From contig OZ024748.1 of assembly GCA_964016885.1 (NCBI GenBank), positions 26,226,001 to 26,290,000 of the forward strand: DNA of 64,000 nucleotides, written 5' to 3'. Of the stretch, positions 13,073 through 64,000 are shown in pieces. Below the pieces are notes generated by a model. The model was not told the DNA's origin. It did not search any database and saw only the letters and a list, made by a program, of their open reading frames with translations. This DNA is from Eledone cirrhosa (Eukaryota). Within the stretch, counting starts at the first letter, position 1; each line of letters opens with the position of its first letter. A program made the translations under genes and the position numbers.

Positions 13073-13103
13073 ATAACAGCTGTCCATCAGTCATATGCAG
13101 TGG
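13073..13103 (+). CDS. Candidate 31-nt coding micro-exon (ITAVHQSYAV-), likely the end of the signal peptide of the VWA-mucin gene
   Basis: CTGAC branch-like motif, TTTTTTAATTTCAG acceptor, TGG/GTAAGT donor; ends in phase 1 and joins the VWA exon in frame to give ITAVHQSYA-VECYGDVADF, with S-x-A at -3/-1. Confidence 0.6.
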
Positions 13104-13154
13104 GTAAGTTGTTTTCTCCTCACCTCCCTTTTTTTTAAATTTAATTTTCTGTCA

Positions 13155-13760
13155 GAATTGTAGGTTATTAGGTGGTTGGCAGGTTTCTGGAAGTTAGTGT
13201 TGCAAATGGTTAGTGCACTTGCATCACAAAATTCAAGAAGCCTCACTCCTTCTTCATTTCTTGAGCCGTAACCGTGCCCACCATGTACCCCAGTGTAACC
13301 ATCCTGGAGCTGTCCAACATGACCATTGAAGTCCCCTGCCAGCATAACGATGTCTCCGTCCTCTGTCACTGTGGTTGTTTGTAAAAGTTGCTCGTAAAAG
13401 CAGTCTTTCTCTTCTTTACCTAGGCCTGCCTGGGGAGCATAGGCAGAGATGATTGTCAGTAGTCTCCTGCCTACAACTAATCTAAGCTTAATTATTCTAT
13501 TACTAACTTGAACTACCTCTATTGTCTTATCGATCCATCTCTCAGGCAGTAAAATGCCTACTCCACCTAACCCATCATCATTACCCACCCAGAAAAACTT
13601 ATAACTAAGATGTTTGCCTGCGATTAGTCTTGCAGAGGCACCTCTCCATCTCATCTCTTGCACGCAGCACACATCCACATGCCTTTTCTCCAGCATCTCC
13701 ACTATTTCACCAGATCTACCTGTTAGAGTGCTAACTCTGAGATGCAACGTCTTCATATTC
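13155..13760 (-). mobile_element. RTE-clade LINE fragment, APE endonuclease domain
   Basis: ORF 13091-13813: VDVCCVQEMRWRG, IISAYAPQ, GDFNGHVG, RNEEGVRLLEFC; truncated after HLITY. Confidence 0.9.
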
Positions 13761-14084
13761 TTGTTCTTTTTCCTATAGTGCGATTGCTTGATGACGGTAG
13801 GGGGTTCTCGCACATGGCCTCACCAGCCACCCCACTACTGTGCACAATTCTAACATGGTTAGTGTTATTGCTGTTTACGCAGTTGTTGCAATTCTTATCT
13901 GTTGTGCTCATAGTTTTTGGCAGTAGTATATATACTGGTTGGATGCCCTTCCTAACACCAGCACCACTTTACAGCATGGACTGGGTGCTTTTATTCATGC
14001 CACCAGCACTAAAGAGGTTGTCTTACTGGACTCAGGGGCCCTCTCTACCCTTCACACACACACACACACACACACACATATAAA

Positions 14085-14252
14085 GATAGTGTGGTAAGAA
14101 ACCAGGTGGACCATAACACACCAGAGTACTCAATACTTAGGGCAGTAGAGTGGGTAATAGGAAAAGAGTCATCACCCGGACGTTCGGTTTAGTTCGGATC
14201 TAGCTGTCGAAATGGCCAGAGCTCAGCCGTCGGGGTCCTGACTCTTTTCCTA
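14085..14252 (+). mobile_element. Small element with a degenerate hammerhead-like fold; homolog of 18681-18885
   Basis: Shared 5' part GTGGTAAG..ACCAGGTGGACCATAA..GAGTGGGTAATAGGAA; GAAA-TGGC..GCCG-TC-GGGGT with AAAAGAGTCA/TGACTCTTTT stem; the CTGANGA box is degenerate (CGGACGT). Confidence 0.55.
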
Positions 14253-16530: not shown

Positions 16531-16668
16531 CCCTTATAATATTAATAATAATGAAGTATTAATATAACATCAATATGTTTATACACACGTGACACGTGTG
16601 AACCAATGGTAACTAAACATTACACACCAATACACTATATATATGTGTGTGTATATATATATGTATAT

Positions 16669-17315: not shown

Positions 17316-17368
17316 GAAAAATGTGTCTATCAGTGCGACTTCTACTGTCATATACATATATATATATC

Positions 17369-25514: not shown

Positions 25515-26066
25515 AATGCTATGGAGATGTAGCAGACTTTGTATTTGTTCTGGATTCCTCTAGCAGTATTTGGCCTCCTGATTATGAAAGACTACGGTCA
25601 TTTGTTAATAATTTTGCACAAAATTACGATATTGGTCAAGGACCATGTCAGATAAAAATGAGTGTGATATCGTACAGTGACAAGGCCCACATAGACATAC
25701 CATTGGATAAATTCAAAAACAGGCAGGCTGTCTCAGATGCAATAAAAAAAGTCCCTTATAGAATGGGACAGACAAACACAGCTGCTGCTCTGGCTCTTAC
25801 AAAGAAAGTTTTTGAACGCCCTTACCCACAACCTGAAAGACCTCAAGTTGCCATTATTGTCACTGATGGAGTATCAGACAATCCTCTACAAACAAGAAGA
25901 AATGCACAGAAACTAAAGGATGCTGGCATCCATACTTATTCTGTCGGAGTTGGAAACAATGTTGATTTAAATGAATTAGTGGACATTACCAGTGAGTATC
26001 CACAAGGAGTTGTTCGTGTACCCAGCTACAGAGCTCTTGAGAAAATTGCTATCAGCTTTAACGTCA
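25515..26066 (+). CDS. Exon encoding a von Willebrand factor A (VWA) domain, matrilin/collagen VI-like, with intact MIDAS
   Basis: ADFVFVLDSSSSI (DxSxS), GQTNTAAAL (T), IIVTDG (D), YSVGVG; CTAAC branch plus TTTCTCCACAG acceptor; CA/GTGAGT donor; 552 nt, phase 1-1. Confidence 0.93.
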
Positions 26067-28134: not shown

Positions 28135-31100
28135 AGAAGATGACAACATCCGCGTATGGACCAACCACAGAAGGGATACATAAGGTAACGTCAAATATAT
28201 TTTATCAACTTTCATCAAAAAAAAATATTGAAATCACAACACCATCACAAAAGCCTGCTATTACATTAACATTCGAAAAGAAAAAAAAAGGTGGGGAAAA
28301 AGAAGACAAAACACAAACACTGACGACAGGGGAACCAATCATAACATCACCAATGGTTAAACGAACAACAATTCTATTTAAGACCACAGCTTTCATGACA
28401 ACTAGTGAAAGACCTACCATAACCGCTATAGCTAAAACACCTACCACAAAAACTGCTACTAGAGAAAAAACAAATACCACAACAACTACAGGTACAACAC
28501 CTACCATGATAGTTACAGGTACAACACGTACCACAACAGTTACAAGTACAACACCTACCACAACAGTTACAGGTAAAAAACCTACCACAACAGTTACAGG
28601 TACAACATCTACCACGACAACTACAGGTTTAACACCTACCATGACAACTATAGGTACAACACCTACCACAAAAACTACTGGTACAACACCTACCATGACA
28701 GCTACAGGTACAATACCTACCATAACAACTACAGGTAGAACACCTATCATAACAACTACTGGTAAAACACCTACCATAACAACTACAGGTACAACACCTA
28801 CCACAACAACAACAGATACAACATCTACCACGACAACTACAGGTACAACACCTACCACAACAACTACAGGTACAACACCTACCACAACAGGTACAACACC
28901 TAACATGACAGTTACAGGTACAACACCTACCATCACAACTACAGGTGCAACACCTACCATAACAGCTACAGGTACAATGGCTACCACAATATTTACAGTT
29001 ACAACAGCTACCGCAACAACTACAGGTACGACACCTACCATAAATACTACAGGTACAACACCTACCACGACAACTACAGGTACACCAGCTACCACAACAG
29101 TTACAGGTACAACACCTACCACAACAACAGGTACAACACCTACCACAACAACAACAGGTACACCACCTGCAACAACAACAACAGGTACAACACCTAACAC
29201 AACAACTACAGGCACAACACCTACAGGCACAACAACTACAGGCACAACACCTACCACAATAACTACAGGTACAACACCTACCATAACAACTACAGGTACA
29301 ACACCTACCACAACAACTACAGGTACAACACCTACCATAAAAACTACAGGTACAACACCTACCATAACAACTACAGGTACAACACCTACGACAACAACTA
29401 CAGGTACAACATCTACCAAAACAACAAGTACAACACCTATCACGAAAACTACAGGTACAACACCTACCACAACAACTACAGGTACAACACCTAACATGAC
29501 AGTTACAGGTACAACATCTACCAACACAACTACAGGTACAACACCTACCACAACAACTAGAGGTGCAACACCTACCATGACAGCTACAGGTACAACGGCT
29601 ACCATAAAATCTACAGGTACACCACCTACCACAACAGTTACAGGTACAACACCTACCACAACAACAACAACAGGTACAACACCTACCACAACCACTACAG
29701 GTACAACACCTACCACAAAAACTACAGGTACAACACCTAACATGACAGTTACAGGTACAACACCTATCGCAACAGTTACAGGTAAAACACCAACCACAAA
29801 AACTACAAGTAAAACAGGTACCATAACAACTACAGGTACAACACCTACCACAAAAGCTACAGGTACAACACACACCATAAAACCTACAGGTACAACACAT
29901 ACCATAAAACCTACAGGTACAACACATACCATAACAACTACAAGTACAACACCTACCATAACAATTACAGGTACAACACCTACCACAACAACTACAGGTA
30001 TAACACCTACCAAAACAAGTACAGTTACAACACCTAGCACAAAAACTACAGGTACAACACCTACCACAACAGTTACAGGTACAACTACCATGACAACTAC
30101 AGGTGCAACACCTACCACAATAGTTACAGATAAAAGACCAACCACAACAAAAAGTACAACACCTACCACAAGTACAGGTACAACACCTACCACAACAGAT
30201 ACAGGTACCACACCTGCAGTTACAACATCTACAACAACAGCTACAGGTACAACACCTACCATGCCAACAACAGGTACAGCACCTACCACAACAACTACAG
30301 GTACAGCACCTACAACAACAACTACAAGTAAAGCACCTATCATAACAACTACAGGTACAACACCTACTTTGAAAGTTACTACACCAACCATGAAAACTAC
30401 AGGTACAACACCTACCATGACAGTTACTGGTACAACACCTACCACAACAACTGCAGGTACAACAACTACCAAAACAACACCTACAGGTACAGCAACTACT
30501 ATGATTGTTACAGGTACAGCACCTACCATGACAATTACAGGTGCAACACCTACCACAATCGTTACAGGTGCAACACCTACCATGACAACTACAGGTACAA
30601 CACCTACCACAACAAGTACAGTTACAACATCTACCACAACAAGTCCAACACCTATCACAACAACTACAGATACAAAACCAACAACAACAAGTACAACACC
30701 TACTACAACAACTACAGGTACAACACCTACCACAACAACAAGTAAAACACCTACCACAACTACAGGTACAACCGCTACAAAAACGCCTACCATGTCAACT
30801 ACAGGTAGAGCACCTATCATAACAACTACAGGTACAACACCTACAACAACAACTACAGGTACAACACCTACCATAACAACTACAGGTACAACACCTACCA
30901 TAACAACTACAGGTACAACACCTACCATAACAACTACAGGTACAACACCTACCACAACAACTACAAGTACAACATCTACCACAACAGTTACAGGTACACC
31001 ACCTATTACGACAACTACAGGTACAAGACCTACCGTAACAACTACAGGTACAACACGTACCACAACAACAGGTACAAAACGTACCACAACAACAAGTACA

Positions 31101-43100: not shown

Positions 43101-46100
43101 ACACCTACCATGACAACTACAGGTACAACATCTACCATAACAGCTACAGGTACAACACCTAACAGAACAACAACAGATACAACACCTACCATAACAACTA
43201 CAGTTACAACACCTACCACAACAGCAGGTACAACACCTAGTACAACAACTACAGGTACAACACCAGCCATGAGAACCACAGGTACAACACCTACCATGAC
43301 AATTACAGGTAAAACACCTATCATAACAGCTACAGGTACAACACCTAACACAACAACTACTATGACAGTTACAGGTAGAACACCTGCAACAACAACTACA
43401 GGTACACCTTCCATAACAACTACAGGTGCAACACCTAGCACAACAGTTACAGGTACAACACCTACCACAACACCTGCAGTTAGAACACCTACAGTTACAA
43501 CACCTACCACAACAACTACAGGTACAACACCTCCCACAACTACAGGTACAACAGCTACCACAAAAACTGGTACAACACCTGCCACAACAACTAGAGTTAT
43601 AACACCTACCATAACAACTACAGGTACAAAACCTACCATAACAACTACAGCTACAACACCTACCACAACTACAGGTACAACACCTACAGTTACAGGTACA
43701 ACACCTTCCATATCACCTACAGTTACAACACCTACTACAACAAGAAGAGGTACAACACCTACCATAACATCTGCAGGTACAACACCTACCACAACTATAG
43801 GTACAACACCAACGATGAGAACTACAGGTAAAACACCTACCATAACAGCTACAGTCACAACACCTCCCAGAACAACAATAGGTACAACACCTACCATAAC
43901 AACTACAGCTACAACACCCACATTGACAGTTACAGGTACAAATCCTACCACAACAACTACAGGTACAACACCTACCATAACAACTACAGGTGCAACACCT
44001 ACCATGACAACTACAAGTGCAACACCTACCACAACAGTTACAGGTACAACACCTATCACAACACTTGCGGTTTCAACACCTACCACAACAATTACAGGTA
44101 CAGCACCTACCACAACTACACGTACAACACCTACCACGAAAACTACAGGTACAACACCTACCACAACTACAGGTACAACACCTACCACAACAACTACAGG
44201 TACAACGCCTACAGTTACAACACCTACCACAACAGTTACCGGTACAAAACCAGCCATAAGAACTACAGGTACAACACCTACCATGACAACTACAGGTAAA
44301 ACACCCACCATAACAGCTACAGATACAACACCTAACACAACAACTACAGGTACAACTACTATGACAGTTACAGGTAGAACACCTGCAACAACAACTACAG
44401 GTACAACACCTTCCATAACAACTACAGGTGCAACACCTACCACAACAGTTACAAGTACAACACCTACCATGACAACTACAGATGCAACACCTACCACAAC
44501 AACTACAGGTAAAACACCTACCATAACAACTAGAGTTACAACACCTACCATAAGAACTAGAGTTACAACACCTACCATCACAACTACAGGTGCAACACCT
44601 ACCACAACACTTGCAGTTACAACACCTACCAGAACTACAGGTACAGCACCTACCACAACAACTACACGTACAACACCTGCCGCGACAACTACAGGTACAA
44701 CACCTACCACAACTACAGGTACAACACCTGCCACAACAACTACAGTTATAACACCTACCAAGACAACTACAGGTACAACACCTACAGTTACAACACCTAC
44801 CACAACAGTTACAGGTACAACACCGACAGTTACAACACCTACCACAACAAGAACAGGGACAACACCTACCACACCTACCATAAAAACTACAGGTACAACA
44901 CCTACCACAACAACTACAGGTACAACACCTACCACGACCACTACAGATACAACACCTACCACAACAACTACAGCTACAACAACTACAGGTACAACATCTA
45001 ACACAACAACTACATATACAACAGCTACCATAACAACTACAGGTACAACACCTACCATAACAACTACAGCTACAACACCTACCACAACTAAAGGTACAAC
45101 ACCTACAGTTACAGGTACAACACCTTCCATATCACCTACAGTTACAACACCTACTACAACAAGAAGAGGTACAACACCTACCATAACATCTACAGGTACA
45201 ACACCTACCACAACTATAGGTACAACACAAACGATGAGAACAACAGGTAAAACACCTACCATAACAGCTACAGTCACAACACCTCCCAGAACAACAATAG
45301 GTACAACACCTACCATAACAACTACAGCTACAACACCCACATTGACAGTTACAGCTACAAATCCTACCACAACAACTACAGGTACAACACCTACCATAAC
45401 AACTACAGGTGCAACACCTACCACAACACCTACCATGACAACTACAAGTGCAACACCTACCACAACGGTTACAGGTACAACACCTATCACAACACTTGCG
45501 GTTTCAACACCTACCACAACAATTACAGGTACAGCACCTACCACAACTACACGTACAACACCTACCACGAAAACTACAGGTACAACACCTACCACAACTA
45601 CAGGTACAACACCTACCATAACAACTACAGCTACAACACCTACCACAACAACTACAGGTACAACACATACAGTTACAACACCTACCACAACAGTTACGGG
45701 TACAACACCAGCCATGAGAACTACAGGTACAACACCTACCATGACAACTACAGGTAAAACACCTACCATAACAGCTACAGATACAACACCTAACACAACA
45801 ACTACAGGTACAACAACTACTATGACAGTTACAGGTAGAACACCTGCAATAATAACTACAGGTACAACACCTTCCATAACAACTACAGCTGCAACACCTA
45901 CCACAACAGTTACAAGTACAACACCTACCATGACAACTACAGATGCAACACCTACCACAACAGTAACAAGTACAACACCTACCACAACACCTGCAGTTAG
46001 AACATCTACCACAACACCTACAGTTACAACACCTACCACAACTACTACAAGTAAAACACCTATCATAACAACTAGAGTTACAACACCTACCATAAGAACT

Positions 46101-49100
46101 AGAGTTACAACACCTACCATCACAACTACAGGTGCAACACCTACCACAACACTTGCAGTTACAACACCTACCACAACTATAGGTACAGCACCTACCACAA
46201 CAACTACACGTACAACACCTGCCGCGACAACTACAGGTACAACACCTGCCGTGACAACTACAGGTACAACACCTACCACAACTACAGGTACAACACCTGC
46301 CACAACAACTACAGTTATAACACCTACCAAGACAACTACAGGTACGACACCTACAGTTACAACACCTACCACAACAGTTACAGGTACAACACCGACAGTT
46401 ACAACACCTACCACAACAAGAACAGGTACAACACCTACCACACCTACCATAAAAACTACAGGTACAACACCTACCACAACAACTACAGGTACAACACCTA
46501 CCACGACCACTACAGATACAACACCTACCACAACAACTACAGCTACAACACCTACCACAACAACTACAGGTACAACATCTAACACAACAACTACATATAC
46601 AACACCTACCATAACAACTACAGGTACAACAACTACGGGTACAACACCTACCACGACCACTACAGATACAACACCTACCATAACAACTACAGGTACAACA
46701 CCTGCCATAACAGTTACAGGGACAACACCCAACACAACAACTACAGGTACAACACCTATCATAACAACTAGAGGTACAACACCTCCCATAACAGCTACAG
46801 GTACAACACCTAGCGCAACTACAGGTACAACACCTACCAGAACAGTTAGAGGTAGAACACCTACCATATCACTTACAGGTACAACACCTACCGTATCACC
46901 TACAGTTACAACACCTACCGCAACAACAGTTACAACACCTAGCACAACTACAGGTACAACACCAACCACGAGAACTACAGGTTCAACACCTACCAGAACA
47001 ACAGCAGGTACAACACCTACCATAACAACTACAGGTACAACACCTACCATCACAACTACAGGTGCAACACCTACCACAACAATTGCAGTTACAACACCTA
47101 CCACAACAACTACAGGTACAGCACCTACCACAACAACTACACGTACAACACCTACGACAACATCTACACGTACAACACCTACCACAACTACAGGTAAAAC
47201 ACCTACCACAACAACTACAGGTACAACACCTACCACAACAACAGGTACAACACCTACCATGACAGCTACAGGTACAACAACTACCACAACAACTACAGGT
47301 ACAGCACCTACCATAAAAACAACAGTTACAACACCTACCACAACAACTACAGGTACAACATCTACCATGACAGCTACAGGTACAACACCTACCACAACAA
47401 CTACAGCTACAACCCCTACCATAAAAACAACAGTTACAACACCTACCACAACAGCTAGAGGTACAACACCTACCATGACAACTACAGTTACAACACCTAC
47501 CACAACAATTACAGATACAACCCCTACCACAACAACTACAGGTACAATACCTTCCACAACAACAAGTACAACAGCTACAGGTACAACACCTACCACAACA
47601 ACTACAGGTACAACAACTACCATAAAAACAACAGGTACAACACCTACCTCAACAACTACAGGTACAACACCTAACACAACAACTACAGGTACAACACCTA
47701 CCACAACAACTACAGGAACAACACCAACCATGAAAACTACAGGTACAACACCTACCATGACAGTTACAGGTACAACACCTACCACAACAACTACAGGTAC
47801 AACACCTACCATGACAGCTACAGGTACAACACCTACCACAAAAACTACAGGTACAACACCTATCATGCAAACTACAGGTACAACACCTACCATGACAGTT
47901 ACAGGTACAAAACCTACCACAACAACTACAGGTACAACACCTACCACAACTGCAGGTACAAAACCTACCACAACAATTACAGGTACAACCCCTACCACAA
48001 CAACTACAGGTACAACACCTACCACAACAACTACAGGTAGAACACCTACCACAACAACAAGTACAATACCTACAACAACACCTACCATGACAACTACAGG
48101 TACAACACGTACTAAAACAACTACAGGTACAACACGTACTAAAACAACTACAGGTACAACACCTACCATAACAACTACAGGTACAACACCTACCATGACC
48201 GCTACAGGTACAACACCTTCCACAACAACACCTACCATGACAACTACAGGTACAACACCTACCATAACAACTACAGGTGCAACACCTACCGCAACAACTA
48301 CAGGTACAACACCTATCATAACAGCTACAGGTACAACACCTGCTACACGTACAAAACCTACCACAACAACTACAGTTACAACACCTACCTCAACAGTTCC
48401 GGGTACAACACCCACCATGACAACTGCAGGTACAACAACTACCACGACAGCTACAACACCTACCATAAGAACTACAGGTACAACACCTACCACAACAGCT
48501 ACAGGTACAACACCTGCCACAACAGCTACCGGTACAACACCTACCACAACAACAAATACAACGACTACCACAACAACTACAGCTACAACACCTACGATGA
48601 CAGCTATAGGTAAAAATCTTACCACAACTCCAATTGTGACACTTTTAGCAACAGCTATAGATGAAATGAGAACAACACACATTAAACAAACTACAACATC
48701 TATATTACCAAGCAACAATACAACACTGTTTCTAGAAACATTAACACCCAATATAACAACACAATCAACACCAGAAATGGTAACAATAGAATTAACAAGT
48801 AAAACAAAGGGACTGAATATGACTGAATCTATATTGAAACCATTTCATAATGAAACAACCAAATGGATAGAGGAGGACGAAATTAATAAAATATTATTAA
48901 ATGAAACTACTACAGAAGGAATAACCAGAAATCCATTATTAACAAAACTAATAACACAGCCCATACATGAAACAACAGAAATAAAAGGTTTAAACATAAC
49001 AGAAGCTACAAAACTATATAAAGAAATAACAGGGAGGACAGGAACAGAAGCCTCATATAATAAAACAATAACAAAAGATAAAACATATGATGGCACAACA

Positions 49101-52100
49101 AAAGCGGCAGTAATTACAGAGGGAATATTAAAAAGCTCTGCAGACACAATTGTAGGGGGAAAAGAATCTACAGACCAAATAGCCACTAAAACAACATTGA
49201 CGAAAATACGTACTGGAGAATTTACACCTAAAATAGAGATAGTCTCCAAAGCTACAATATCGGACCACTTTCAAGTCACGACACCAATCAGTAAAAACGT
49301 AACCCACACAGAAATTACAAAAAAAGCAAAAATAACAATAAGAAACCAGACAGCAGAGGAGGAATTGTTTATACCAACAGCGACAACTCTAGAGAAAAAA
49401 GCTCAAATGACTACGGAAACGACAACTAAAGAACAACAGAGAACTAGTATAGAATATAGGAATAAAACATCCACAGAAAAAACACACAAATTTACAACGC
49501 AGGCAAGGAAAACAGAAATCCTCAATAAAACATTCATAGAAAATACAACAACAACAGCAACAGCAAAGTTTACATCAACGAGTCAAATTCAAAGAAATAC
49601 TGCTAAATATATAGCACTGAGTAGCACATCTGAAACGACCAGTGTTTCATCTACTGAACACACCTATATAACACCATCTACAGACAAAACTACTAGCATT
49701 AAGTATACAACTGAGACATCAACTGAAAAACCACTACCTATCAAGACACCTACAAGCACAGCTGAAAAGATCACTGAAACAGCAACAACATCACAGCTTC
49801 CTTCAACAAGTGAAATCCATATAGAAACTCCTAAATCTACTTCTGAACTACCTCATATAACTGACATTGAAACAAGTACAGTCGAAAGAACAACACAAAT
49901 GACAGATATTGAAACTGAACGCACAACTCAGACAGAAATTACACCACAACTAACAACATCTCCTGAAGAAACAACTCTGTCTACTCAGGTAGAGGACATC
50001 GTAAAGGTGACACCAACACAAGTTGCTAGCACAATGCATACATCACCTGAAACAACAGTTGTTTCATCTCCTGAACAAACCTCTATAACACCTACAGATG
50101 AACTTACTAGTGTTGAATATACAACTGAGACATCAACTGAAAAACCACTACCTATCAACACACCTACAAGCACAGCAGAAAAGATCACTGAAACTATAAC
50201 AGACACAACAGCAACAACATCACAGCTTCCTTCAACAAGTGAAATCCATATAGAAACTCCTAAATCTACTTCTGAACTGCCTCATATAAGTGAGATTGAA
50301 ACAAGTACAGTGGAAAGAACAACACAAATGACAGATATTGAAACTGAACGCACAACTCAGACAGAAATTACACCACAACTAACAACATCTCCTGAAGAAA
50401 CAACTCTGTCTACTCAGGTAGAGGACATCGTAAAGGTGAGACCAACACAAGTTGCTAGCACAATGCATACATCACCTGAAACAACAGTTGTTTCATCTCC
50501 TGAACACACCTCTATAACACCATCTACACACAAACTTACTAGTATTGAATATACAACTGAGATAACAACTGAAAAATCACTACCTATGACAACACCAACA
50601 AGCACAGCAGAAAAGATCACTGAAATTAGAACAGACACAACAGCAACGACATCACAGCTTCCTTCAACAAGTGAAATCCATATAGAAACTCCTAAATCTA
50701 CTTCTGAACTGCCTCATATAACTGACATTGAAACAAGTACAGTGGAAAGAACAACACAACTTACAGATATTGAAACTGAGCGCACAACTCAGACAGAACT
50801 TACACCACAACAAACAAGATCTCCTGAAGAAACCACTCTGTCTACTCAGGTAGAGGACATCAAAAGAGTGACAGCAACACAAGTTGCTAGCACAATGCAT
50901 ACATCACCTGAAACAACAGTTGTTTCATCTCCTGAACACACTTCTATAACACCTACAGATGAACTCACTATTAAAGAATACACAACTGAAACATCAACTG
51001 AAAAATCACTACCTATGACAACACCTACAAGCACAACAGAAAAGATCACTGAAACTATAACAGACACAACAGCAACAACATCACAGCTTCCTTCAACAAG
51101 TGAAATCCATATAGAAACTCCTAAATCTACTTCTGAACTGCCTCATATAACAGACATTGAAACAAGTACAGTGGAAAGAACAACACAAGTTACAGATATT
51201 GAAACTGAGCGCACAACTCAGAAAGAAATTACACCACAACAAACAACATCTCCTGAAGAAACAACACTGTCTACTCAGGTAGAGGACATCGTAAAGGTGA
51301 CACCAACACAAGTTGCTAGCACAATGCATACATCACCTGAAACAAAAGTTGTTTCATCTCCTGAACACACTTCTATAACACCTACAGATGAACTCACTAT
51401 TAAAGAATACACAACTGAGACATCAACTGAAAAATCACTACCTATGACAACACCTACAAGCACAGCAGAAAAGATCCCTGAAACTATAACAGACACAACA
51501 GCAACAACATCACAGCTTCCTTCAACAAGTGAAATCCATATAGAAACTCCTAAATCTACTTCTGAACTGCCTCATATAACAGACATTGAAACAAGTACAG
51601 TGGAAAGAACAACACAAGTTACAGATATTGAAACTGAGCGCACAACTCAGACAGAAATTACACCACAACAAACAACATCTCCTGAAGAAACAACTCTGTC
51701 TACTCAGGTAGAGGAAATCGAAAAGGTGACACCAACACAAGTTGCTAGCACAATGCATACATCACCTGAAACAACAGTTGTTTCATCTCCAGAACACACC
51801 TCTATAACACCTACATATGAACTTACTAGTATTGAATATACAACTGAGACATCAACTGAAAAACCACTACCTATGACAACACCTACAAGCACAGCTGAAA
51901 AGATCACTGAAACTATACCAGACACAACAGCAACAACATCACAGCTTCCTTCAACAAGTGAAATCCATATAGAAACTCCTAAATCTACTTCTGAACTGCC
52001 TCATATAACACACATTGAAACAAGTACAGTGGAAAGAACAACACAAGTTACAGATATTGAAACTGAGCGCACAACTCAGACAGAAATTACACCACAACAA

Positions 52101-55100
52101 ACAACATCTCCTGAAGAAACAACACTGTCTACTCAGGTAGAGGACATCGTAAAGGTGACACCAACACAAGTTGCTAGCACAATGCATACATCACCTGAAA
52201 CAACAGTTGTTTCATCTCCTGAACACACTTCTATAACACCTACAGATGAACTCACTATTAAAGAATACACAACTGAGACATCAACTGAAAAATCACTACC
52301 TATGACAACACCTACAAGCACAGCAGAAAAGATCACTGAAACTATAACAGACACAACAGCAACAACATCACAGCTTCCTTCAACAAGTGAAATCCATATA
52401 GAAACTCCTAAATCTACTTCTGAACTGCCTCATATAACAGACATTGAAACAAGTACAGTGGAAAGAACAACACAAGTTACAGATATTGAAACTGAGCGCA
52501 CAACTCAGACAGAAATTACACCACAACAAACAACATCTCCTGAAGAAACAACTCTGTCTACTCAGGTAGAGGAAATCGAAAAGGTGACACCAACACAAGT
52601 TGCTAGCACAATGCATACATCACCTGAAACAACAGTTGTTTCATCTCCTGAACAAACCTCTATAACACCTACAGATGAACTTACTAGTGTTGAATATACA
52701 ACTGAGACATCAACTGAAAAACCACTACCTATCAAGACACCTACAAGCACAGCAGAAAAGATCACTGAAACTATAACAGACACAACAGCAACAACATCAC
52801 AGCTTCCTTCAACAAGTGAAATCCATATAGAAACTCCTAAATCTACTTCTGAACTGCCTCATATAACAGACATTGAAACAAGTACAGTGGAAAGAACAAC
52901 ACAAGTTACAGATATTGAAACTGAGCGCACAACTCAGACAGAAATTACACCACAACAAACAACATCTCCTGAAGAAACAACACTGTCTACTCAGGTAGAG
53001 GACATCGTAAAGGTGACACCAACACAAGTTGCTAGCACAATGCATACATCACCTGAAACAACAGTTGTTTCATCTCCTGAACACACTTCTATAACACCTA
53101 CAGATGAACTCACTATTAAAGAATACACAACTGAGACATCAACTGAAAAATCACTACCTATGACAACACCTACAAGCACAGCAGAAAAGATCACTGAAAC
53201 TATAACAGACACAACAGCAACAACATCACAGCTTCCTTCAACAAGTGAAATCCATATAGAAACTCCTAAATCTACTTCTGAACTGCCTCATATAACAGAC
53301 ATTGAAACAAGTACAGTGGAAAGAACAACACAAGTTACAGATATTGAAACTGAGCGCACAACTCAGACAGAAATTACACCACAACAAACAACATCTCCTG
53401 AAGAAACAACTCTGTCTACTCAGGTAGAGGAAATCGAAAAGGTGACACCAACACAAGTTGCTAGCACAATGCATACATCACCTGAAACAACAGTTGTTTC
53501 ATCTCCTGAACACACCTCTATAACACCATCTACACACAAACTTACTAGTATTGAATATACAACTGAGATAACAACTGAAAAATCACTACCTATGACAACA
53601 CCAACAAGCACAGCAGAAAAGATCACTGAAATTAGAACAGACACAACAGCAACGACATCACAGCTTCCTTCAACAAGTGAAATCCATATAGAAACTCCTA
53701 AATCTACTTCTGAACTGCCTCATATAACAGACATTGAAACAAGTACAGTGGAAAGAACAACACAAGTTACAGATATTGAAACTGAGCGCACAACTCAGAC
53801 AGAAATTACACCACAACAAACAACATCTCCTGAAGAAACAACTCTGTCTACTCAGGTAGAGGAAATCGAAAAGGTGACACCAACACAAGTTGCTAGCACA
53901 ATGCATACATCACCTGAAACAACAGTTGTTTCATCTCCTGAACACACCTCTATAACACCATCTACACACAAACTTACTAGTATTGAATATACAACTGAGA
54001 TAACAACTGAAAAATCACTACCTATGACAACACCAACAAGCACAGCAGAAAAGATCACTGAAATTAGAACAGACACAACAGCAACGACATCACAGCTTCC
54101 TTCAACAAGTGAAATCCATATAGAAACTCCTAAATCTACTTCTGAACTGCCTCATATAACAGACATTGAAACAAGTACAGTGGAAAGAACAACACAATTT
54201 ACAGATATTGAAACTGAACGCACAACTCAGACAGAAATTACACCACAACTAACAACATCTCCTGAAGAAACAACACTGTCTACTCAGGTAGAGGACATCG
54301 TAAAGGTGACACCAACACAAGTTGCTAGCACAATGCATACAACAACTGAAACAACAGTTGTTTCATCTATTGAACAAACCTCTGTAGCACCATCTTCAGA
54401 GGAACTCACTAGTATAAAATATACAACTGAGACATCAACTGAAAAATCACTACCTACAATAACACCGACAAGCACAGCAGAAAAGATCACTGAAACTATA
54501 ACAGACACAACAACAACAACATCACAGCTTCCTTCAACAAGTGAAATCCATATAGAAACTCCTAAATCTACTTCTGAACAGCCTCATATAAGTGAGATTG
54601 AAACAAGTACAGTGGAAAGAACAACACAATTTACAGATATTGAAACTGAACGCACAACTCAGACAGAACTTACACCACAACAAACAAGATCTCCTGAAGA
54701 AACAACTCTGTCTACTCAGGTAGAGGACATCGAAAAGGTGAAACCAACACAAGTTGCTAGCACAATGCATACATCACCTGAAACAACAGTTGTTTCATCT
54801 CCAAAACACACCTCTATAACACCTACAGATGAACTTATTAGTATTGAATATACAACTGAGACATCAACTGAAAAACCACTACCTATCAAGACACCTACAA
54901 GCACAGCAGAAAAGATCACTGAAACTAGAACAGACACAACAGCAACAACATCACAGGTTCCTTCAACAAGTGAAATCCATATAGAAACTCCTAAATCTAC
55001 TTCTGAACTGCCTCATATAACTGACATTGAAACAAGTACAGTGGAAAGAACAACACAACTTACAGATATTGAAACTGAGCGCACAACTCAGACAGAACTT

Positions 55101-58100
55101 ACACCACAACAAACAAGATCTCCTGAAGAAACAACTCTGTCTACTCAGGTAGAGGACATCAAAAGAGTGACAGCAACACAAGTTGCTAGCACAATGCATA
55201 CATCACCTGAAACAACAGTTGTTTCATCTCCTGAACACACTTCTATAACACCTACAGATGAACTCACTATTAAAGAATACACAACTGAAACATCAACTGA
55301 AAAATCACTACCTATGACAACACCTACAAGCACAGCAGAAAAGATCACTGAAACTAGAACAGACACAACAGCAACAACATCACAGCTTCCTTCAACAAGT
55401 GAAATCCATATAGAAACTCCTAAATCTACTTCTGAACTGCCTCATATAACTGACATTGAAACAAGTACAGAGGAAAGAACAACACAAGTTACAGATATTG
55501 AAACTGAGCACACAACTCAGACAGAAATTACACCACAACAAACAACATCTCCTGAAGAAACAACTCTGTCTACTCAGGTAGAGGAAATCGAAAAGGTGAC
55601 ACCAACACAAGTTGCTAGCACAATGCATACATCACCTGAAACAACAGTTGTTTCATCTCCTGAACACACTTCTATAACACCTACAGATGAACTCACTATT
55701 AAAGAATACACAACTGAGACATCAACTGAAAAATCACTACCTATGACAACACCTACAAGCACAGCAGAAAAGATCACTGAAACTATAACAGACACAACAG
55801 CAACAACATCACAGCTTCCTTCAACAAGTGAAATCCATATAGAAACTCCTAAATCTACTTCTGAACTGCCTCATATAACAAACATTGAAACAAGTACAGT
55901 GGAAAGAACAACACAAGTTACAGATATTGAAACTGAGCGCACAACTCAGACAGAAATTACACCACAACAAACAACATCTCCTGAAGAAACAACTCTGTCT
56001 ACTCAGGTAGAGGAAATCGAAAAGGTGACACCAACACAAGTTGCTAGCACAATGCATACATCACCTGAAACAACAGTTGTTTCATCTCCTGAACAAACCT
56101 CTATAACACCTACAGATGAACTTACTAGTGTTGAATATACAACTGAGACATCAACTGAAAAACCACTACCTATCAAGACACCTACAAGCACAGCAGAAAA
56201 GATCACTGAAACTATAACAGACACAACAGCAACAACATCACAGCTTCCTTCAACAAGTGAAATCCATATAGAAACTCCTAAATCTACTTCTGAACTGCCT
56301 CATATAACAGACATTGAAACAAGTACAGTGGAAAGAACAACACAAGTTACAGATATTGAAACTGAGCGCACAACTCAGACAGAAATTACACCACAACAAA
56401 CAACATCTCCTGAAGAAACAACACTGTCTACTCAGGTAGAGGACATCGTAAAGGTGACACCAACACAAGTTGCTAGCACAATGCATACATCACCTGAAAC
56501 AACAGTTGTTTCATCTCCTGAACACACTTCTATAACACCTACAGATGAACTCACTATTAAAGAATACACAACTGAGACATCAACTGAAAAATCACTACCT
56601 ATGACAACACCTACAAGCACAGCAGAAAAGATCACTGAAACTATAACAGACACAACAGCAACAACATCACAGCTTCCTTCAACAAGTGAAATCCATATAG
56701 AAACTCCTAAATCTACTTCTGAACTGCCTCATATAACAGACATTGAAACAAGTACAGTGGAAAGAACAACACAAGTTACAGATATTGAAACTGAGCGCAC
56801 AACTCAGACAGAAATTACACCACAACAAACAACATCTCCTGAAGAAACAACTCTGTCTACTCAGGTAGAGGAAATCGAAAAGGTGACACCAACACAAGTT
56901 GCTAGCACAATGCATACATCACCTGAAACAACAGTTGTTTCATCTCCTGAACACACCTCTATAACACCATCTACACACAAACTTACTAGTATTGAATATA
57001 CAACTGAGATAACAACTGAAAAATCACTACCTATGACAACACCAACAAGCACAGCAGAAAAGATCACTGAAATTAGAACAGACACAACAGCAACGACATC
57101 ACAGCTTCCTTCAACAAGTGAAATCCATATAGAAACTCCTAAATCTACTTCTGAACTGCCTCATATAACAGACATTGAAACAAGTACAGTGGAAAGAACA
57201 ACACAAGTTACAGATATTGAAACTGAGCGCACAACTCAGACAGAAATTACACCACAACAAACAACATCTCCTGAAGAAACAACTCTGTCTACTCAGGTAG
57301 AGGAAATCGAAAAGGTGACACCAACACAAGTTGCTAGCACAATGCATACATCACCTGAAACAACAGTTGTTTCATCTCCTGAACACACCTCTATAACACC
57401 ATCTACACACAAACTTACTAGTATTGAATATACAACTGAGATAACAACTGAAAAATCACTACCTATGACAACACCAACAAGCACAGCAGAAAAGATCACT
57501 GAAATTAGAACAGACACAACAGCAACGACATCACAGCTTCCTTCAACAAGTGAAATCCATATAGAAACTCCTAAATCTACTTCTGAACTGCCTCATATAA
57601 CAGACATTGAAACAAGTACAGTGGAAAGAACAACACAATTTACAGATATTGAAACTGAACGCACAACTCAGACAGAAATTACACCACAACTAACAACATC
57701 TCCTGAAGAAACAACACTGTCTACTCAGGTAGAGGACATCGTAAAGGTGACACCAACACAAGTTGCTAGCACAATGCATACAACAACTGAAACAACAGTT
57801 GTTTCATCTATTGAACAAACCTCTGTAGCACCATCTTCAGAGGAACTCACTAGTATAAAATATACAACTGAGACATCAACTGAAAAATCACTACCTACAA
57901 TAACACCGACAAGCACAGCAGAAAAGATCACTGAAACTATAACAGACACAACAACAACAACATCACAGCTTCCTTCAACAAGTGAAATCCATATAGAAAC
58001 TCCTAAATCTACTTCTGAACAGCCTCATATAAGTGAGATTGAAACAAGTACAGTGGAAAGAACAACACAATTTACAGATATTGAAACTGAACGCACAACT

Positions 58101-61100
58101 CAGACAGAACTTACACCACAACAAACAAGATCTCCTGAAGAAACAACTCTGTCTACTCAGGTAGAGGACATCGAAAAGGTGAAACCAACACAAGTTGCTA
58201 GCACAATGCATACATCACCTGAAACAACAGTTGTTTCATCTCCAAAACACACCTCTATAACACCTACAGATGAACTTATTAGTATTGAATATACAACTGA
58301 GACATCAACTGAAAAACCACTACCTATCAAGACACCTACAAGCACAGCAGAAAAGATCACTGAAACTAGAACAGACACAACAGCAACAACATCACAGGTT
58401 CCTTCAACAAGTGAAATCCATATAGAAACTCCTAAATCTACTTCTGAACTGCCTCATATAACTGACATTGAAACAAGTACAGTGGAAAGAACAACACAAC
58501 TTACAGATATTGAAACTGAGCGCACAACTCAGACAGAACTTACACCACAACAAACAAGATCTCCTGAAGAAACAACTCTGTCTACTCAGGTAGAGGACAT
58601 CAAAAGAGTGACAGCAACACAAGTTGCTAGCACAATGCATACATCACCTGAAACAACAGTTGTTTCATCTCCTGAACACACTTCTATAACACCTACAGAT
58701 GAACTCACTATTAAAGAATACACAACTGAAACATCAACTGAAAAATCACTACCTATGACAACACCTACAAGCACAGCAGAAAAGATCACTGAAACTAGAA
58801 CAGACACAACAGCAACAACATCACAGCTTCCTTCAACAAGTGAAATCCATATAGAAACTCCTAAATCTACTTCTGAACTGCCTCATATAACTGACATTGA
58901 AACAAGTACAGAGGAAAGAACAACACAAGTTACAGATATTGAAACTGAGCACACAACTCAGACAGAAATTACACCACAACAAACAACATCTCCTGAAGAA
59001 ACAACAGTGTCTACTCAGGTAGAGGACATCGTAAAGGTGACACCAACACAAGTTGCTAGCACAATGCATACAACAACTGAAACAACAGTTGTTTCATCTA
59101 TTGAACAAACCTCTGTAGCACCATCTTCAGAGGAACTCACTAGTATAAAATATACAACTGAGACATCAACTGAAAAATCACTACCTACAATAACACCAAC
59201 AAGCACAGCAGAAAAGATCACTGAAACTATAACAGACACAACAACAACAACATCACAGCTTCCTTCAACAAGTGAAATCCATATAGAAACTCCTAAATCT
59301 ACTTCTGAACTGCCTCATATAAGTGAGATTGAAACAAGTACAGTGGAAAGAACAACACAATTTACAGATATTGAAACTGAACGCACAACTCAGACAGAAA
59401 TTACACCACAACTAACAACATCTCCTGAAGAAACCACTCTGTCTACTCAGTTAGAGGACATCAAAAGAGTGACAGCAACACAAGTTGCTAGCACGATGCA
59501 TACATCACCTGAAACAACAGTTGTTTCATCTCCTGAACACACCTCTATAACACCTACAGATGAACTCACTAGTATTGAATATACAACTGAGACATCAACT
59601 GAAAAATCACTACCTATGACAACACCTACAAGCACAGTAGAAAAAATCACTGAAACTAGAACAGACACAACAGCAACAACATCACAGCTTCCTTCAACAA
59701 GTGAAATCCATATAGAAACTCCTAAATCTACTTCTGAACTGCCTCATATAAGTGACATTGAAACAAGTACAGTGGAAAGAACAACACAAATTACAGATAT
59801 TGAAACTGAGCGCACAACTCAGATAGAAATTACACCACAGCAAACAACATCTCCTGAAGAAACAACACTGTCTACTCAGGTAGAGGACATCGTAAAGGTG
59901 ACACCAACACAAGTTGCTAGCACAATGCATACATCACCTGAAACAACAGTTGTTTCATCTCCTGAACACACCTCTATAACACCTACAGATGAACTTACTA
60001 GTATTGAATATACAACTGAGACATCAACTGAAAAACCACTACCTATCAAGACACCTACAAGCACAGCAGAACTGATCACTGAAACTAGAACAGACACAAC
60101 AGCAACAACATCACAGCTTCCTTCAACAAGTGATATCCATATAGAAACTCCTAAATCTACTTCTGAACTGCCTCATATAACTGACGTTGAAACAAGTACA
60201 GTGGAAAGAACAACACAAGTTACAGATATTGAAACTGAACGCACAACTCAGACAGAACTTACACCACAACAAACAAGATCTCCTGAAGAAACCACTCTGC
60301 CTACTCAGGTAGAGGACATCGAAAGAGTGACAGCAACACAAGTTGCTAGCACAAGGCATACATCACCTGAAACAACAGTTGTTTCATCTCCTGAACACAC
60401 TTCTATGACACCTACACATGAACTCACTATTAAAGAATACAAAACCGAGACATCAACTGAAAAATCACTACCTATGACAACACCTACAAGCACATCAGAA
60501 AAGATCACTGAAACTAGAACAGACACAACAGCAACAACATCACAGCTTCCTTCAACAAGTGAAATTCATATTGAAACTCCTAAATCTACTTCTGAACTGC
60601 CTCATATAACTGACATTGAAACAAGTACAGTGGAAAGAACAACACAAGTTACAGATATTGAAACTGAGCGCACAACTCAGACAGAACTTACACCACAACA
60701 AACAAGATCTCCTGAAGAAACCACTCTGTCTACTCAGGTAGAGGACATCGTAAAGGTGACACCAACACAAGTTGCTAGCACAATGCATACATCACCTGAA
60801 ACAACAGTTGTTTCATCTCCTGAACACACCTCTATAACACCTACAGATGAACTTACTAGTATTGAATATACAACTGAGAGATCAACTGAAAAATCACTAC
60901 CTATGACAACACCTACAAGCACAGCAGAAAAGATCACTGAAACTAGAACAGACACAACAGCAACAACATCACAGCTTCCTTCAACAAGTGAAATCCATAT
61001 AGAGACTCATAAATCTACTTCTGAACTGCCTCATATAAGTGACATTGAAACAAGTACAGTGGAAAGAACAACACATATTACAGATATTGAAACTGAGCGC

Positions 61101-64000
61101 ACAACTCAGACAGAACTTACACCACAACAAACAACACCTCCTGAAGAAACCACTCTGTCTACTCAGGTAGAGGACATCGAAAGGGTGACAGCAACACAAG
61201 TTGCTAGCACAATGCATACATCACCTGAAACAACAGTTGTTTCATCTCCTGAACACACTTCTATGACACCTACACATGAACTCACTATTAAAGAATACAA
61301 AACTGAGACATCAACTGAAAAATCACTACCTATGACGACACCTACAAGCACATCAGAAAAGATCAATGAAACTAGAACAGACACAACAGCAACAACATCA
61401 CAGCTTCCTTCAACAAGTGAAATCCATATAGAAACTCCTAAATCTACTTCTGAAATGCCTCATATAACTGACATTGAAACAAGTACAGTGGAAAGAACAA
61501 CACAAGTTACAGATATTGAAACTGAGCGCACAACTCAGATAGAAATTACACCACAGCAAACAACATCTGCTGAAGAAAAAACACTGTATACTCAGGTAGA
61601 GGACTTCGTAAAGGTGACACCAACACAAGTTGCTAGCACAATGCATACATCACCTGAAACAACAGTTGTTTCATCTCCAGAACACACCTCTATAACACCT
61701 ACAGATGAACTTACTAGTATTGAATATACAACTGAGAGATCAACTGAAAAATCACTACCTATGACAACACCTACAAGCACAGCAGAAAAGATCACTGAAA
61801 CTAGAACAGACACAGCAGCAACAACATCACAGCTTCCTTCAACAAGTGAAATCCATATAGAAACTCATAAATCTACTTCTGAACTGCCTCATATAATTGA
61901 CATTGAAACAAGTACAGTGGAAAGAACAAGACAAATTACAGATATTGAAACTGAACGCACAACTCAGACAGAAATTACACCACAACAAACAACATCTCCT
62001 GAAGAAACAACTCTGTCTACTCAGGTAGAGGACATCGAAAAGGTGACACCAACACAAGTTGCTAGCACAATGCATACATCACCTGAAACAACAGTTGTTT
62101 CATCTCCTGAACACACCTCTATAACAATTACAGATGAACTTACTAGTATTGAATATACAACTGAGACATCAACTGAAAAACCACTACCTATCAAGACACC
62201 TACAAGCACAGCAGAAAAGATCACTGAAACTAGAACAGACACAACAGCAACAACATCACAGCTTCCTTCAACAAGTGAAATCCATATAGAAACTCCTAAA
62301 TCTACTTCTGAACTGCCTCATATAACTGACATTGAAACAAGTACAGTGGAAAGAACAACACAAATTACAGATATTGAAACTGAACGCACAACTCAGACAG
62401 AAATTACACCACAACAAACAACATCTCCTGAAGAAACAACTCTGTCTACTCAGGTAGAGGACATCGAAAAGGTGACACCAACACAAGTTGCTAGCACAAT
62501 GCATACATCACCTGAAACAACAGTTGTTTCATCTCCTGAACACACCTCTATAACAATTACAGATGAACTTACTAGTATTGAATATACAACTGAGACATCC
62601 ACTGAAAAACCACTACCTATAAAGACACCTACAAGCACAGCTGAAAAGATCACTGAAACTATAACAGACACAACAGCAACAACATCACAGCTTCCTTCAA
62701 CAAGTGAAATCCATATAGAAACTCCTAAATCTACTTCTGAACTGCCTCATATAACTGACATTGAAACAAGTACAGTGGAAAGAACAACACAAGTTACAGA
62801 TATTGAAACTGAACGCACAACTCAGACAGAAATTACACCACAACTAACAACATCTCCTGAAGAAACAACTCTGTCTACTCAGGTAGAGGACATCGAAAAG
62901 GTGACACCAACAACAGTTGTTTCATCTCCTGAACACACCTCTATAACACCTACAGATGAACTTACTAGTATTGAATATACAACTGAGACATCAACTGAAA
63001 AACCACTACCTATCAAGACACATACAAGCACAGCAGAAAAGATCACTGAAACTAGAACAGACACAACAGCAACAACATCACAGGTTCCTTCAACAAGTGA
63101 AATCCATATAGAAACTCATAAATCTACTTCTGAACTGCCTCATATAACTGACATTGAAACAAGTACAGTGGAAAGAACAACACAAGTTACAGATATTGAA
63201 ACTGAGCACACAACTCAGACAGAAATTACACCACAACAAACAACATCTCCTGAAGAAACAACACTGTCTACTCAGGTAGAGGACATCGTAAAGGTGACAC
63301 CAACACAAGTTGCTAGCACAATGCATACATCACCTGAAACAACAGTTTTTTCATCTCCAGAACACACCTCTATAACACCTACAGATGAACTTATTAGTAT
63401 TGAATATACAACTGAGACATCAACTGAAAAACCACTACCTATCAAGACACCTACAAGCACAGCAGAAAAGATCACTGAAACTAGAACAGACACAACAGCA
63501 ACAACATCACAGCTTCCTTCAACAAGTGAAATCCATATAGAAACTCCTAAATCTACTTCTGAACTGCCTCATATAACTGACGTTGAAACGAGTACAGTGG
63601 AAAGAACAACACAAGTTACAGATATTGAAACTGAACGCACAACTCAGACAGAAATTACACCACAACTAACAACATCACCTGAAGAAACAACTCTGTCTAC
63701 TCAGGTAGAGGACATCGAAAAGGTGACACCAACAACAGTTGTTTTATCTCCTGAACACACCTCTATAACACCTACAGATGAACTTACTAGTATGGAATAT
63801 ACAACTGAGACATCAACTGAAAAACCACTACCTATAAAGACACCTACAAGCACAGCTGAAAAGATCACTGAAACTATAACAGACACAACAGCAACAACAT
63901 CACAGCTTCCTTCAACAACTGAAATCCATATAGAAACTCCTAAATCTACTTCTGAACTGCCTCATATAACTGACATTGAAACAAGTACAGTGGAAAGAAC
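28135..64000 (+). CDS. Giant mucin-like exon (>11,900 aa, 3'-partial), in frame with the VWA exon
   Basis: TACTAAC branch point 28106-28112, TTTTTCTATAG acceptor; phase-1 join gives ..SFNV-KKMTTSAYGPTTE; hand-translated start, linker and repeat units have no stop; the Val-rich antisense shadow ORFs keep one frame from 28205 to 63886; its absence from the ORF track is consistent with no stop before the window end. Confidence 0.9.
28480..48600 (+). repeat. Coding 27-bp degenerate repeat, PT(T/I/M)TTTGTT, about 6,700 aa
   Basis: CCTACCATAACAACTACAGGTACAACA consensus; frame is conserved across the domain. Confidence 0.95.
49630..64000 (+). repeat. Coding 429-bp (143-aa) Thr/Glu/Ser/Pro tandem repeat, about 33 copies, with 432- and 393-bp variants
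   Basis: Shadow ORF ends at 49985, 50414, 50846 ... 63701; unit VEDIVKVTPTQVASTMHTSPETTVVSSPE..EIHIETPKSTSELPHITDIETSTVERTTQ..SPEETTLSTQ. Confidence 0.97.

Follow-up and report, generated by a model that had tools for sequence, protein, structure and literature searches.

What protein is encoded where a short exon resembling part of a signal peptide is followed by a VWA exon and then by a PTS reading frame that has not closed 35.9 kb later? The preliminary description of this locus of Eledone cirrhosa, based on a window of 64,000 nt (assembly GCA_964016885.1, contig OZ024748.1, positions 26,226,001 to 26,290,000, forward strand), had noticed these three components and proposed a secreted giant mucin with a single VWA domain. 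The components are indeed present, and most of the main feature lies outside the window.

All of the window features described here are located on the + strand. The micro-exon (13073..13103; 31 nt, phase 0 to 1, cag|...|gtaagt) is likely to encode the c-region of a signal peptide, as predicted from its sequence; it is one of two such candidates in window positions 1-25514 and it fits the layout of the gene family described below. The best of the 48 listed candidates for exon 1 is placed upstream of the window (G000:C8:26,173,393-26,173,437) and consists of an ATG and 14 further codons, with a phase-0 donor. The VWA exon (25515..26066; 183 aa, phase 1-1; Pfam VWA, E 4e-33) has an intact MIDAS: the DxSxS...T...D motif is present, and all 11 aligned rows agree at D13, S15, S17, T86 and D117. 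From its start at 28135 the PTS exon is stop-free to the end of the window (28135..64000, its first 35.9 kb) and terminates at G000:C8:26,553,705, which gives 299,571 nt (phase 1-1) and 99,856 stop-free whole codons, with no N in the assembly. Each of the other five frames contains 2,001-11,041 stops. This exon of ~300 kb, which was beyond the view of the preliminary description, is the real novelty of the locus.

A 2.1-kb intron separates the PTS exon from the terminal exon (G000:C8:26,555,818-26,556,398), which carries the stop codon and encodes a degenerate VWA domain of 192 aa (VWA') lacking a MIDAS and Cys. The fold of VWA', in which the DxSxS...T...D motif is absent, is supported by hhalign with trimmed profile rows (92%, E 5e-7), AlphaFold (pLDDT 83.6) and ESM Atlas (0.93), and Foldseek agrees. 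The protein is therefore not a single-VWA mucin; the downstream C-terminal domain that had been sought is this second VWA, 303.8 kb from the first. The predicted product has ~100,250 aa and a mass of 10.9 MDa prior to glycosylation.

Both borders of the PTS exon were found spliced in contigs of sequencing run X6: the VWA-PTS junction (26066>28135) in a 645-nt contig without mismatches, and the junction with the terminal exon in a 2,244-nt contig with one mismatch. The former settles the concern that the VWA exon might splice elsewhere. Contigs of runs X3 and X4 cross the same borders unspliced. None of the six runs is recorded as RNA, and X6 was called RNA solely from its spliced contigs; the comparison covered contigs of X1, X2, X3, X4 and X6 at the exon ends.

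The composition of the PTS exon (Thr 31.8%, Ser 10.7%, Pro 8.2%, Tyr 0.7%, Gly 0.62%) is that of a mucin-type central tandem-repeat region, here contained in a single exon. Block 1 (28587..48746) comprises 6,720 aa of near-neutral, Thr/Gly/Pro-rich repeats of ~9 aa (Ser+Thr 62%, Gly at most 9%) and is followed by a non-repetitive spacer (48747..49781; 345 aa) with 11 N-glycosylation sequons. Block 2, which starts at 49782 (49782..64000 in the window) and extends to G000:C8:26,552,546, contains ~645 copies of an acidic repeat of 143 aa (429 nt), amounting to 92,255 aa (Ser+Thr 41%, Asp+Glu 17%, His 3%). The exon closes with a non-repetitive, Ser/Thr-rich linker of 386 aa (C8:26,552,547-26,553,705). 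In 100,234 aa there are 42,477 Ser+Thr residues and only 7 Cys (2 before the PTS exon, 5 scattered within it and 0 in the terminal exon).

An array of this kind might be a non-coding satellite that is stop-free in one frame by chance. The amino acid sequence of the ~645 repeats drifts almost neutrally (pN/pS by frequency class: 1.26, 0.96, 1.02 and 0.56), as such a reading would predict. However, the repeats are under selection against stops and frameshifts, and this purging is confined to the coding frame. At the codon level, in 494 units of 429 nt taken from 599 anchor intervals, stop-creating substitutions numbered 0/44 in the coding frame (24.2 expected), vs 37/67 (32.7 expected) and 27/62 (25.5 expected) in the control frames, while alleles private to one unit (n=142) included no stops against 7.9 expected. 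Fifths 2-4 of the array taken together also yielded none (4.1 expected), although expectations of 0.9 and 0.6 stops make the test weak for the middle fifths and alleles are only partly independent of one another. All 11 cleanly aligned indel types, covering 70 of 76 distinct length variants, are multiples of 3; the six excluded variants are poorly aligned odd units with non-triplet gaps. Two stop alleles obtained by codon-blind scoring arose from codons with two changes and vanished at the codon level. An apparent depletion of AATAAA and donor motifs in a codon shuffle was discarded as pseudo-replicated, the opportunity test having low power. Since both exon ends are also spliced in frame and the repeat is kept as a protein in O. 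bimaculoides, the satellite explanation is extremely improbable and already close to refuted.

The length itself could have been inflated during assembly, the true exon being much shorter. The data come from one assembly and one haplotype, 46.5% of the exon falls within 2-kb windows having a copy at least 99.5% identical, and the array includes a 12.8-kb tandem block (99.82% identical) and two blocks, of 13.2 and 9.0 kb, with 99.8% identical copies. On the other hand, 99.8% of 5-kb words are unique, 456 of the 599 anchor intervals are distinct (longest exact duplicate, 5,333 nt), and exact runs of at least 10 units never recur. The best 10-kb identity on the tested diagonals over 50 kb was only 97.1%, which argues against stacked haplotypes. 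Divergence grows with distance and toward the ends of the array, the pattern described for mucin arrays in the accessible text of PMC13345508. Even the harshest collapse, which drops any later copy with 99% identity across 2 kb, leaves at least 59,793 codons. Contig depths summed over the end of the repeats (10,862 vs ~10 in unique sequence for X4, 62 vs 11.3 for X6) are neither copy numbers nor a proof. A considerable inflation of the exon thus appears improbable.

We consider it fairly probable that the 299.6-kb exon is translated whole into a mucin of ~100,250 aa and 10.9 MDa, the longest coding exon and, among eukaryotes, the longest protein seen so far, in which gene length replaces disulfide polymerization and which has grown from VWA-linker-VWA' proteins of ~500 aa. 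It is rather unlikely that, in a real gene, most of the mRNA is shorter, with in-frame splicing generating a ladder of chain lengths in which the 100,000-aa form is rare. The VWA donor, or donors within block 1, could be joined to cryptic acceptors of the repeat: the array holds 356 acceptor-like sites, all in phase 1, which is also the phase of the VWA donor and of 18 of 20 AG|GTAA sites. Nevertheless, only 5 internal sites passed the T-rich acceptor filter, and all exon junctions seen (in contigs at the exon ends) use the outer sites. Depth in X6 hints weakly at shortened transcripts: it is ~5.5-fold that of unique sequence in the last-repeat bin (62 vs 11.3), vs ~1,000-fold in X4, and is still 4.9 at the 5′ junction, although contig depth cannot rank parts of the gene. 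From the 3′ decay in a poly(A) library, 5-12 unit-equivalents would be expected, and capture of the 5′ contig could be due to its containing two of the exon's three A-runs of at least 8 nt. The first and last fifths of the array, moreover, lack stops among private alleles (4.2 and 6.8 expected, 0 seen).

We then considered what a whole-length product would resemble. Pfam detected only the VWA domain at the N-terminus and no VWD-C8-TIL units. There is no CysD domain or C-terminal cystine knot (5 Cys in the PTS exon, 0 in the terminal exon). The scanned segments gave no Pfam match to SEA, NIDO or AMOP, which together with a transmembrane helix mark membrane-tethered mucins, the terminal exon forming a globular VWA fold that runs to the stop codon, and none to collagen, the low Gly content likewise speaking against a Gly-X-Y triple helix. 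The scan input amounted to ~4,600 of 100,234 aa, in partly overlapping segments that included each repeat type. Matches of the repeats to DUF7109, HPS6, zf-AtTam37 and DUF6389 were composition effects, no stretch passing.

Gel-forming mucins are defined by VWD-C8-TIL, CysD and the cystine knot in the accessible text of PMC4948705, and the Eledone protein, having no VWD, CysD or cystine knot, is not one of them by definition. It resembles MUC2, MUC5AC and MUC5B in that it is predicted to be secreted and has one large central PTS repeat exon between globular ends, but the ends are VWA and VWA', there are 7 Cys and the exon spans 299.6 kb. With human MUC12 it shares a very large single VNTR exon with an intact frame; the longest MUC12 allele given in the accessible text of PMC13345508 (23,080 aa) is ~1/4 as long as the Eledone chain, and MUC12, the largest human coding exon, is membrane-tethered, whereas no SEA was found in the scanned segments of the Eledone protein. 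Among solved structures, the N-terminal VWA matched collagen VI alpha 3 best, followed by the mussel byssal protein PTMP1, which ranked third for VWA'. Both have the VWA fold and the MIDAS of the Eledone N-terminal domain, but their VWAs are adjacent and in tandem, while those of Eledone are ~99,860 PTS residues apart. In its extreme single-frame length the prediction is comparable with titin, PKZILLA-1 (45,212 aa, the longest eukaryotic protein in the literature searched, which it exceeds 2.2-fold) and the predicted Omnitrophota giants (85,804 and 147,155 aa, the longer exceeding the Eledone chain); these are chains of enzymes or folded domains, whereas the Eledone chain is a repeat of low complexity encoded by a single exon of a eukaryote. 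We found no named mucin or collagen orthologue, and no description of a secreted-type VWA-plus-mucin protein without VWD and CysD in the literature searched.

The layout is not a one-off class, since it is common to 11 loci in the E. cirrhosa genome. Like the other members of this coleoid VWA-linker-VWA' family, the mega-exon gene has a DSSSS(I/V)W-type VWA exon (phase 1-1), a Thr-rich linker exon and a degenerate-VWA terminal exon, with the same domains and exon phases; the linkers of its relatives are far shorter (0-310 aa in ten full-length database members, nine of them named octopod), and the VWA-to-VWA' gaps of the paralogues are 2.4-15.7 kb vs 303.8 kb. In a tree that left out P0038 and P0040 (no motif match), the gene fell into its own orthogroup with P0013 and P0030 (support 100/100). 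Full-length paralogues have hydrophobic N-termini; the N-terminus of P0030 is unlike the signal peptides of the family. The 5′ exons, readable at 4 of 8 paralogue loci (C15_8.12, C1_280.61, C15_8.09 and C1_280.54, the ATG of the last lying beyond the stretch examined), are hydrophobic with a phase-0 end in all four, and micro-exons of 22-28 nt (phase 0 to 1) occur at three of them.

Family members were also found in Octopus, Argonauta and Acanthosepion. They are annotated as "collagen alpha-1(XXVIII)/(XII)/alpha-5(VI)-like" or uncharacterized (e.g. XP_029634555.2 and XP_014771412.1), yet have no collagen helix, and a literature search found no paper citing six of the accessions. A partial orthologue, XP_014785251.1 of O. 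bimaculoides, shares repeat, linker and VWA' with the Eledone protein (79% identity); this model is an 862-aa piece that begins inside the repeats. Searches for longer orthologue models gave weak negatives: none of 322-2,000 aa with the VWA query (12 matches, best 40%) and 0 of 6,648 candidates of 2,161-5,000 aa with the C-linker query.

We lean slightly towards the view that the 299,571-nt stop-free exon, lying between the MIDAS-VWA and degenerate-VWA exons, specifies one secreted, O-glycosylated, mucin-type chain of ~100,250 residues that gels by entanglement rather than by disulfide polymerization. The chain would be secreted (exon 1 and the signal peptide being candidates) and densely O-glycosylated at ~42,000 Ser/Thr, which, with typical per-residue lengths, would produce a bottle-brush 25-36 micrometres long. 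Its acidic block may be condensed by Ca2+ before release, and the N-terminal MIDAS may anchor the chain by binding a carboxylate group of either a matrix protein or a partner protein, single-chain entanglement then producing the gel. The polymer length that vertebrate mucins gain by linking monomers would be encoded in one exon. An observation that speaks against this reading is that the available part of the supplement to an O. vulgaris skin-mucus proteome contains zero peptides of the VWA-linker-VWA' family. The preliminary description had envisaged a cation-crosslinked glycopolymer; because there is one MIDAS per ~10.9-MDa chain, the VWA would serve as an end anchor and not as a dense metal cross-linker, and bulk cation binding would sit in the array with 17% Asp+Glu.

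It seems doubtful that the full-length chain is instead a glue, an egg-coat cement or a matrix tether acting through metal-dependent VWA binding, and not free mucus. The structural matches to PTMP1, second for VWA and third for VWA', are consistent with such a role, as are the VWA proteins of scallop byssus and snail mucus mentioned in the accessible text of PMC9168380 and PMC10475054. Against it are the single MIDAS per chain, VWA' lacking the motif, and the absence of a collagen domain; with 0.7% Tyr, Dopa-type glue chemistry is also not expected.

If translated whole, the mucin-type chain would be over twice as long as any eukaryotic protein in the literature searched, and its exon would have about four times the length of the largest human one that is coding. 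Several limits thereby become testable, namely those on defining a 300-kb exon, on exporting and stabilizing an mRNA of that length, on ribosome processivity, and on moving a chain of tens of micrometres through the ER and Golgi. In a toy calculation, full-length chains amounted to 37% at a drop-off of 1e-5 per codon and to 0.004% at 1e-4. Exons of this kind probably defeat gene annotation, as in the 862-aa model of O. bimaculoides, and more of them may therefore be hidden in long-read genomes. The locus suggests a second way of making a mucus gel, and the family constitutes a natural series of linkers from ~70 to ~100,000 residues.

The analysis covered the window, the 60 kb that precede it and the 340 kb that follow it on contig C8 of the Eledone cirrhosa assembly (G000; genome of 3.0 Gb); its named relatives are in keeping with an octopod. 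The PTS region lies within one plus-strand mega-exon, which extends from an acceptor at 28135 to a donor at 327,705 (window numbering, continued along the contig) and contains 99,856 whole codons in 299,571 nt, with no stop and no N; each of the other five frames carries 2,001–11,041 stops. The exon encodes (i) a Thr/Gly/Pro-rich block 1 (6,720 aa), (ii) a spacer between the repeat blocks (345 aa), (iii) block 2, in which an acidic 143-aa unit recurs ~645 times (92,255 aa in all, with 17% Asp+Glu), and (iv) a C-terminal linker (386 aa). A 2.1-kb intron separates it from the terminal exon (329,818–330,398, plus strand), which encodes 192 aa. Counted between the first junction codon and the stop, the predicted protein has 100,234 aa (10.9 MDa), with 42,477 Ser+Thr and 7 Cys; the two candidate 5′ exons would contribute a further 25 aa. 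Five of the seven AATAAA hexamers of the mega-exon cluster at 48885–49524, in the spacer; internal polyadenylation could occur at this site, although no stop lies upstream of the hexamers.

Of six sequencing runs (X1–X6), none on record as RNA, X1–X4 and X6 were examined for splicing. In X6, a 645-nt contig links 26066 to 28135 with 0 mismatches, and a 2,244-nt contig (1 mismatch) starts where the last repeat ends and passes through the end of the mega-exon and the terminal exon into the 3′ UTR, its junction coinciding with the predicted GT-AG intron to within an ambiguity of 2 nt. X1 and X2, which stem from a different organism and study, yielded ~87%-identical contigs whose matches begin at the borders of the VWA exon and of the terminal (VWA′) exon; contigs of X3 and X4 are unspliced over the mega-exon borders. 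Since the X6 contigs are spliced and the X1/X2 matches start at exon borders, the mega-exon is used at both ends; a single contig cannot span it. Shorter mRNAs could arise by in-frame splicing into the array, because its 356 acceptor-like sites share phase 1 with the donors. The X6 depth (only ~5.5x the unique level in the repeat-end bin, and 4.9 at the 5′ junction versus 11.3 at the 3′ end) would fit such forms, but contig depth is no measure by which the parts of a gene can be ranked, and this picture is also expected from a poly(A) library with 2–5-kb decay and capture at two A9 runs in the 5′ contig. We consider such shortened forms unlikely; the form of ~100,000 aa is probably made.

In favour of an assembly artefact, with a true array that is shorter, are the array blocks of 13.2 and 9.0 kb whose copies are 99.8% identical, and the 46.5% of the mega-exon lying in 2-kb windows that have a 99.5% copy. 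However, 456 of the 599 anchor intervals are distinct, no exact duplicate in the exon exceeds 5,333 nt, and 99.8% of 5-kb words occur only once. Even when every later copy matching at 99% across 2 kb is taken out (500 strongest diagonals), 59,793 codons are left; with a threshold of 99.5% across 5 kb the figure is 89,789. None of the diagonals >50 kb tested exceeded 97.1% identity over 10 kb, which speaks against stacked haplotypes. The X4 contig depth at the repeat end (~1,000x the unique level), although no copy number, agrees as an order of magnitude with an array of hundreds of copies. Such recent block duplications, ~99.8% identical, lie in the array from window 53088 to G000:C8:26,305,095 (offset 12,783 nt) and at G000:C8:26,461,254–26,482,765 (offset 12,462 nt); they reflect either a late expansion of the array or duplication introduced locally by the assembly.

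Substitutions were tested in 494 units of exactly 429 nt, taken from the 599 anchor intervals. Non-synonymous (373 of 906 possible) and synonymous (131 of 324) changes occur at similar rates. In the coding frame none of the 44 possible stop-creating changes was seen (24.2 expected); in the other two sense frames 37 of 67 and 27 of 62 were seen, which matches expectation. Alleles confined to one unit (n = 142) likewise include no stops (7.9 expected). No stop was seen in any fifth of the array (expected 4.2, 2.6, 0.9, 0.6 and 6.8); with 0.9 and 0.6 expected, the middle alone gives little power. Because repeat copies share ancestry, all these test probabilities are approximate. Of 76 distinct length variants, 70 were scored; they comprise 11 indel types, every one a multiple of 3. 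Selection on the array thus acts on its length and composition rather than on its sequence, to judge by this pattern.

The intact MIDAS of the VWA exon (25515–26066, plus strand), noticed in the preliminary description, is borne out by a Pfam VWA match (E 4e-33) and by five MIDAS residues unchanged in 11 of 11 aligned rows. The terminal 192-aa domain is a VWA without MIDAS: it aligns with the family's N-terminal VWA (hhalign 92%, E 5e-7), its AlphaFold model has a pLDDT of 83.6, the best Foldseek matches are integrin I domains, PTMP1 and collagen VI, and the ESM Atlas returns VWA clusters at 0.93. The Cys that closes VWA in the paralogues is absent from the mucin gene and its orthologue, as are the two VWA′ Cys kept by most paralogues (window 25517–26065 and L045:5820–6395); a new Cys45 in VWA, present in both, may pair with Cys1.

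The micro-exon proposed earlier (13073–13103, plus strand; 31 nt, phase 0 to 1) is one of two such candidates within 25.5 kb. It agrees with the layout of the paralogues: 5′ exons were readable at four of 8 loci (9 protein-to-locus comparisons), all four having a hydrophobic 5′ exon with a phase-0 donor and three a phase 0-to-1 micro-exon of 22–28 nt. The best of 48 exon 1 candidates listed is found 52.6 kb before the window starts; if it is right, the multi-kilobase (AT)n tracts (window 1–6290 and up to ~16 kb upstream of the window) would be inside the first intron. Another ATG exon that resembles a signal peptide (L032, G000:C8:26,168,101–26,168,159) has a strong donor, but in phase 2, which is incompatible with the micro-exon; it may be part of another gene. 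Minisatellites of 119 bp (6674–7258) and 48 bp (11535–11984) and a minus-strand LINE-like remnant (7400–9900, judged by eye) were also observed.

Searching the assembly with VWA′ gave 11 loci, each with a paired VWA exon. The 10 paralogues (C1:280.42–280.75 Mb, n = 7; C15:8.09–8.12 Mb, n = 2; C37, n = 1) have VWA-to-VWA′ gaps of 2.4–15.7 kb, with a short Thr-rich linker frame seen at seven. The N-terminal VWA clusters (support 100/100) with P0013 and P0030, database proteins of the coleoid VWA-linker-VWA′ family, in which no collagen domain was found, though databases name relatives collagens. Among 1.84 billion representatives, 16 proteins matched VWA′ at E ≤ 0.001; relatives, named or by cluster member, come from Octopus bimaculoides, O. 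vulgaris, O. sinensis, Argonauta hians and Acanthosepion pharaonis, with a weak one in Pecten maximus. The partial O. bimaculoides orthologue XP_014785251.1, an 862-aa model beginning inside the repeats, shares repeat and linker and has a 79%-identical VWA′. At G000:C107:10289–152060, at least 60 tandem VWA-exon copies (periods ~1.64 kb and ~2.8–3.2 kb) possibly form a giant poly-VWA gene.

The gene is real, spliced and selectively maintained, and its exon is record-class. Reported lengths are 45,212 aa for PKZILLA-1 (bioRxiv 2024.01.29.577497), up to 23,080 aa for MUC12, whose coding exon is the largest in human (PMC13345508), and 85,804 aa (bioRxiv 2023.11.21.568195) and 147,155 aa (bioRxiv 10.64898/2026.06.07.730766) for predicted bacterial proteins; neither "mucin" nor "Mollusca" came up when PMC11573180, which deals with huge proteins, was searched for these words. 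The architecture is without a found description: the literature searched, mostly outside subscription journals, yielded none of this gene or family, nor of any exon or protein of such length in a eukaryote, which does not prove absence from print. The protein is predicted to behave as a mucin, yet falls outside the VWD-C8-TIL, CysD and cystine-knot definition of gel-forming mucins given in PMC4948705.

The chain consists of two VWA-type ends and a diblock PTS region, without cysteine-rich polymerisation domains. If secreted and densely O-glycosylated, as we infer, it would form a bottle-brush 25–36 micrometres long (at assumed per-residue lengths), and a chain of this size should gel by entanglement, without covalent links. 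Ca2+ is bound during packaging in vertebrate mucin granules, and the acidic block would by analogy serve to bind it when the chain is packaged. The single MIDAS per chain would best be read as an end anchor.
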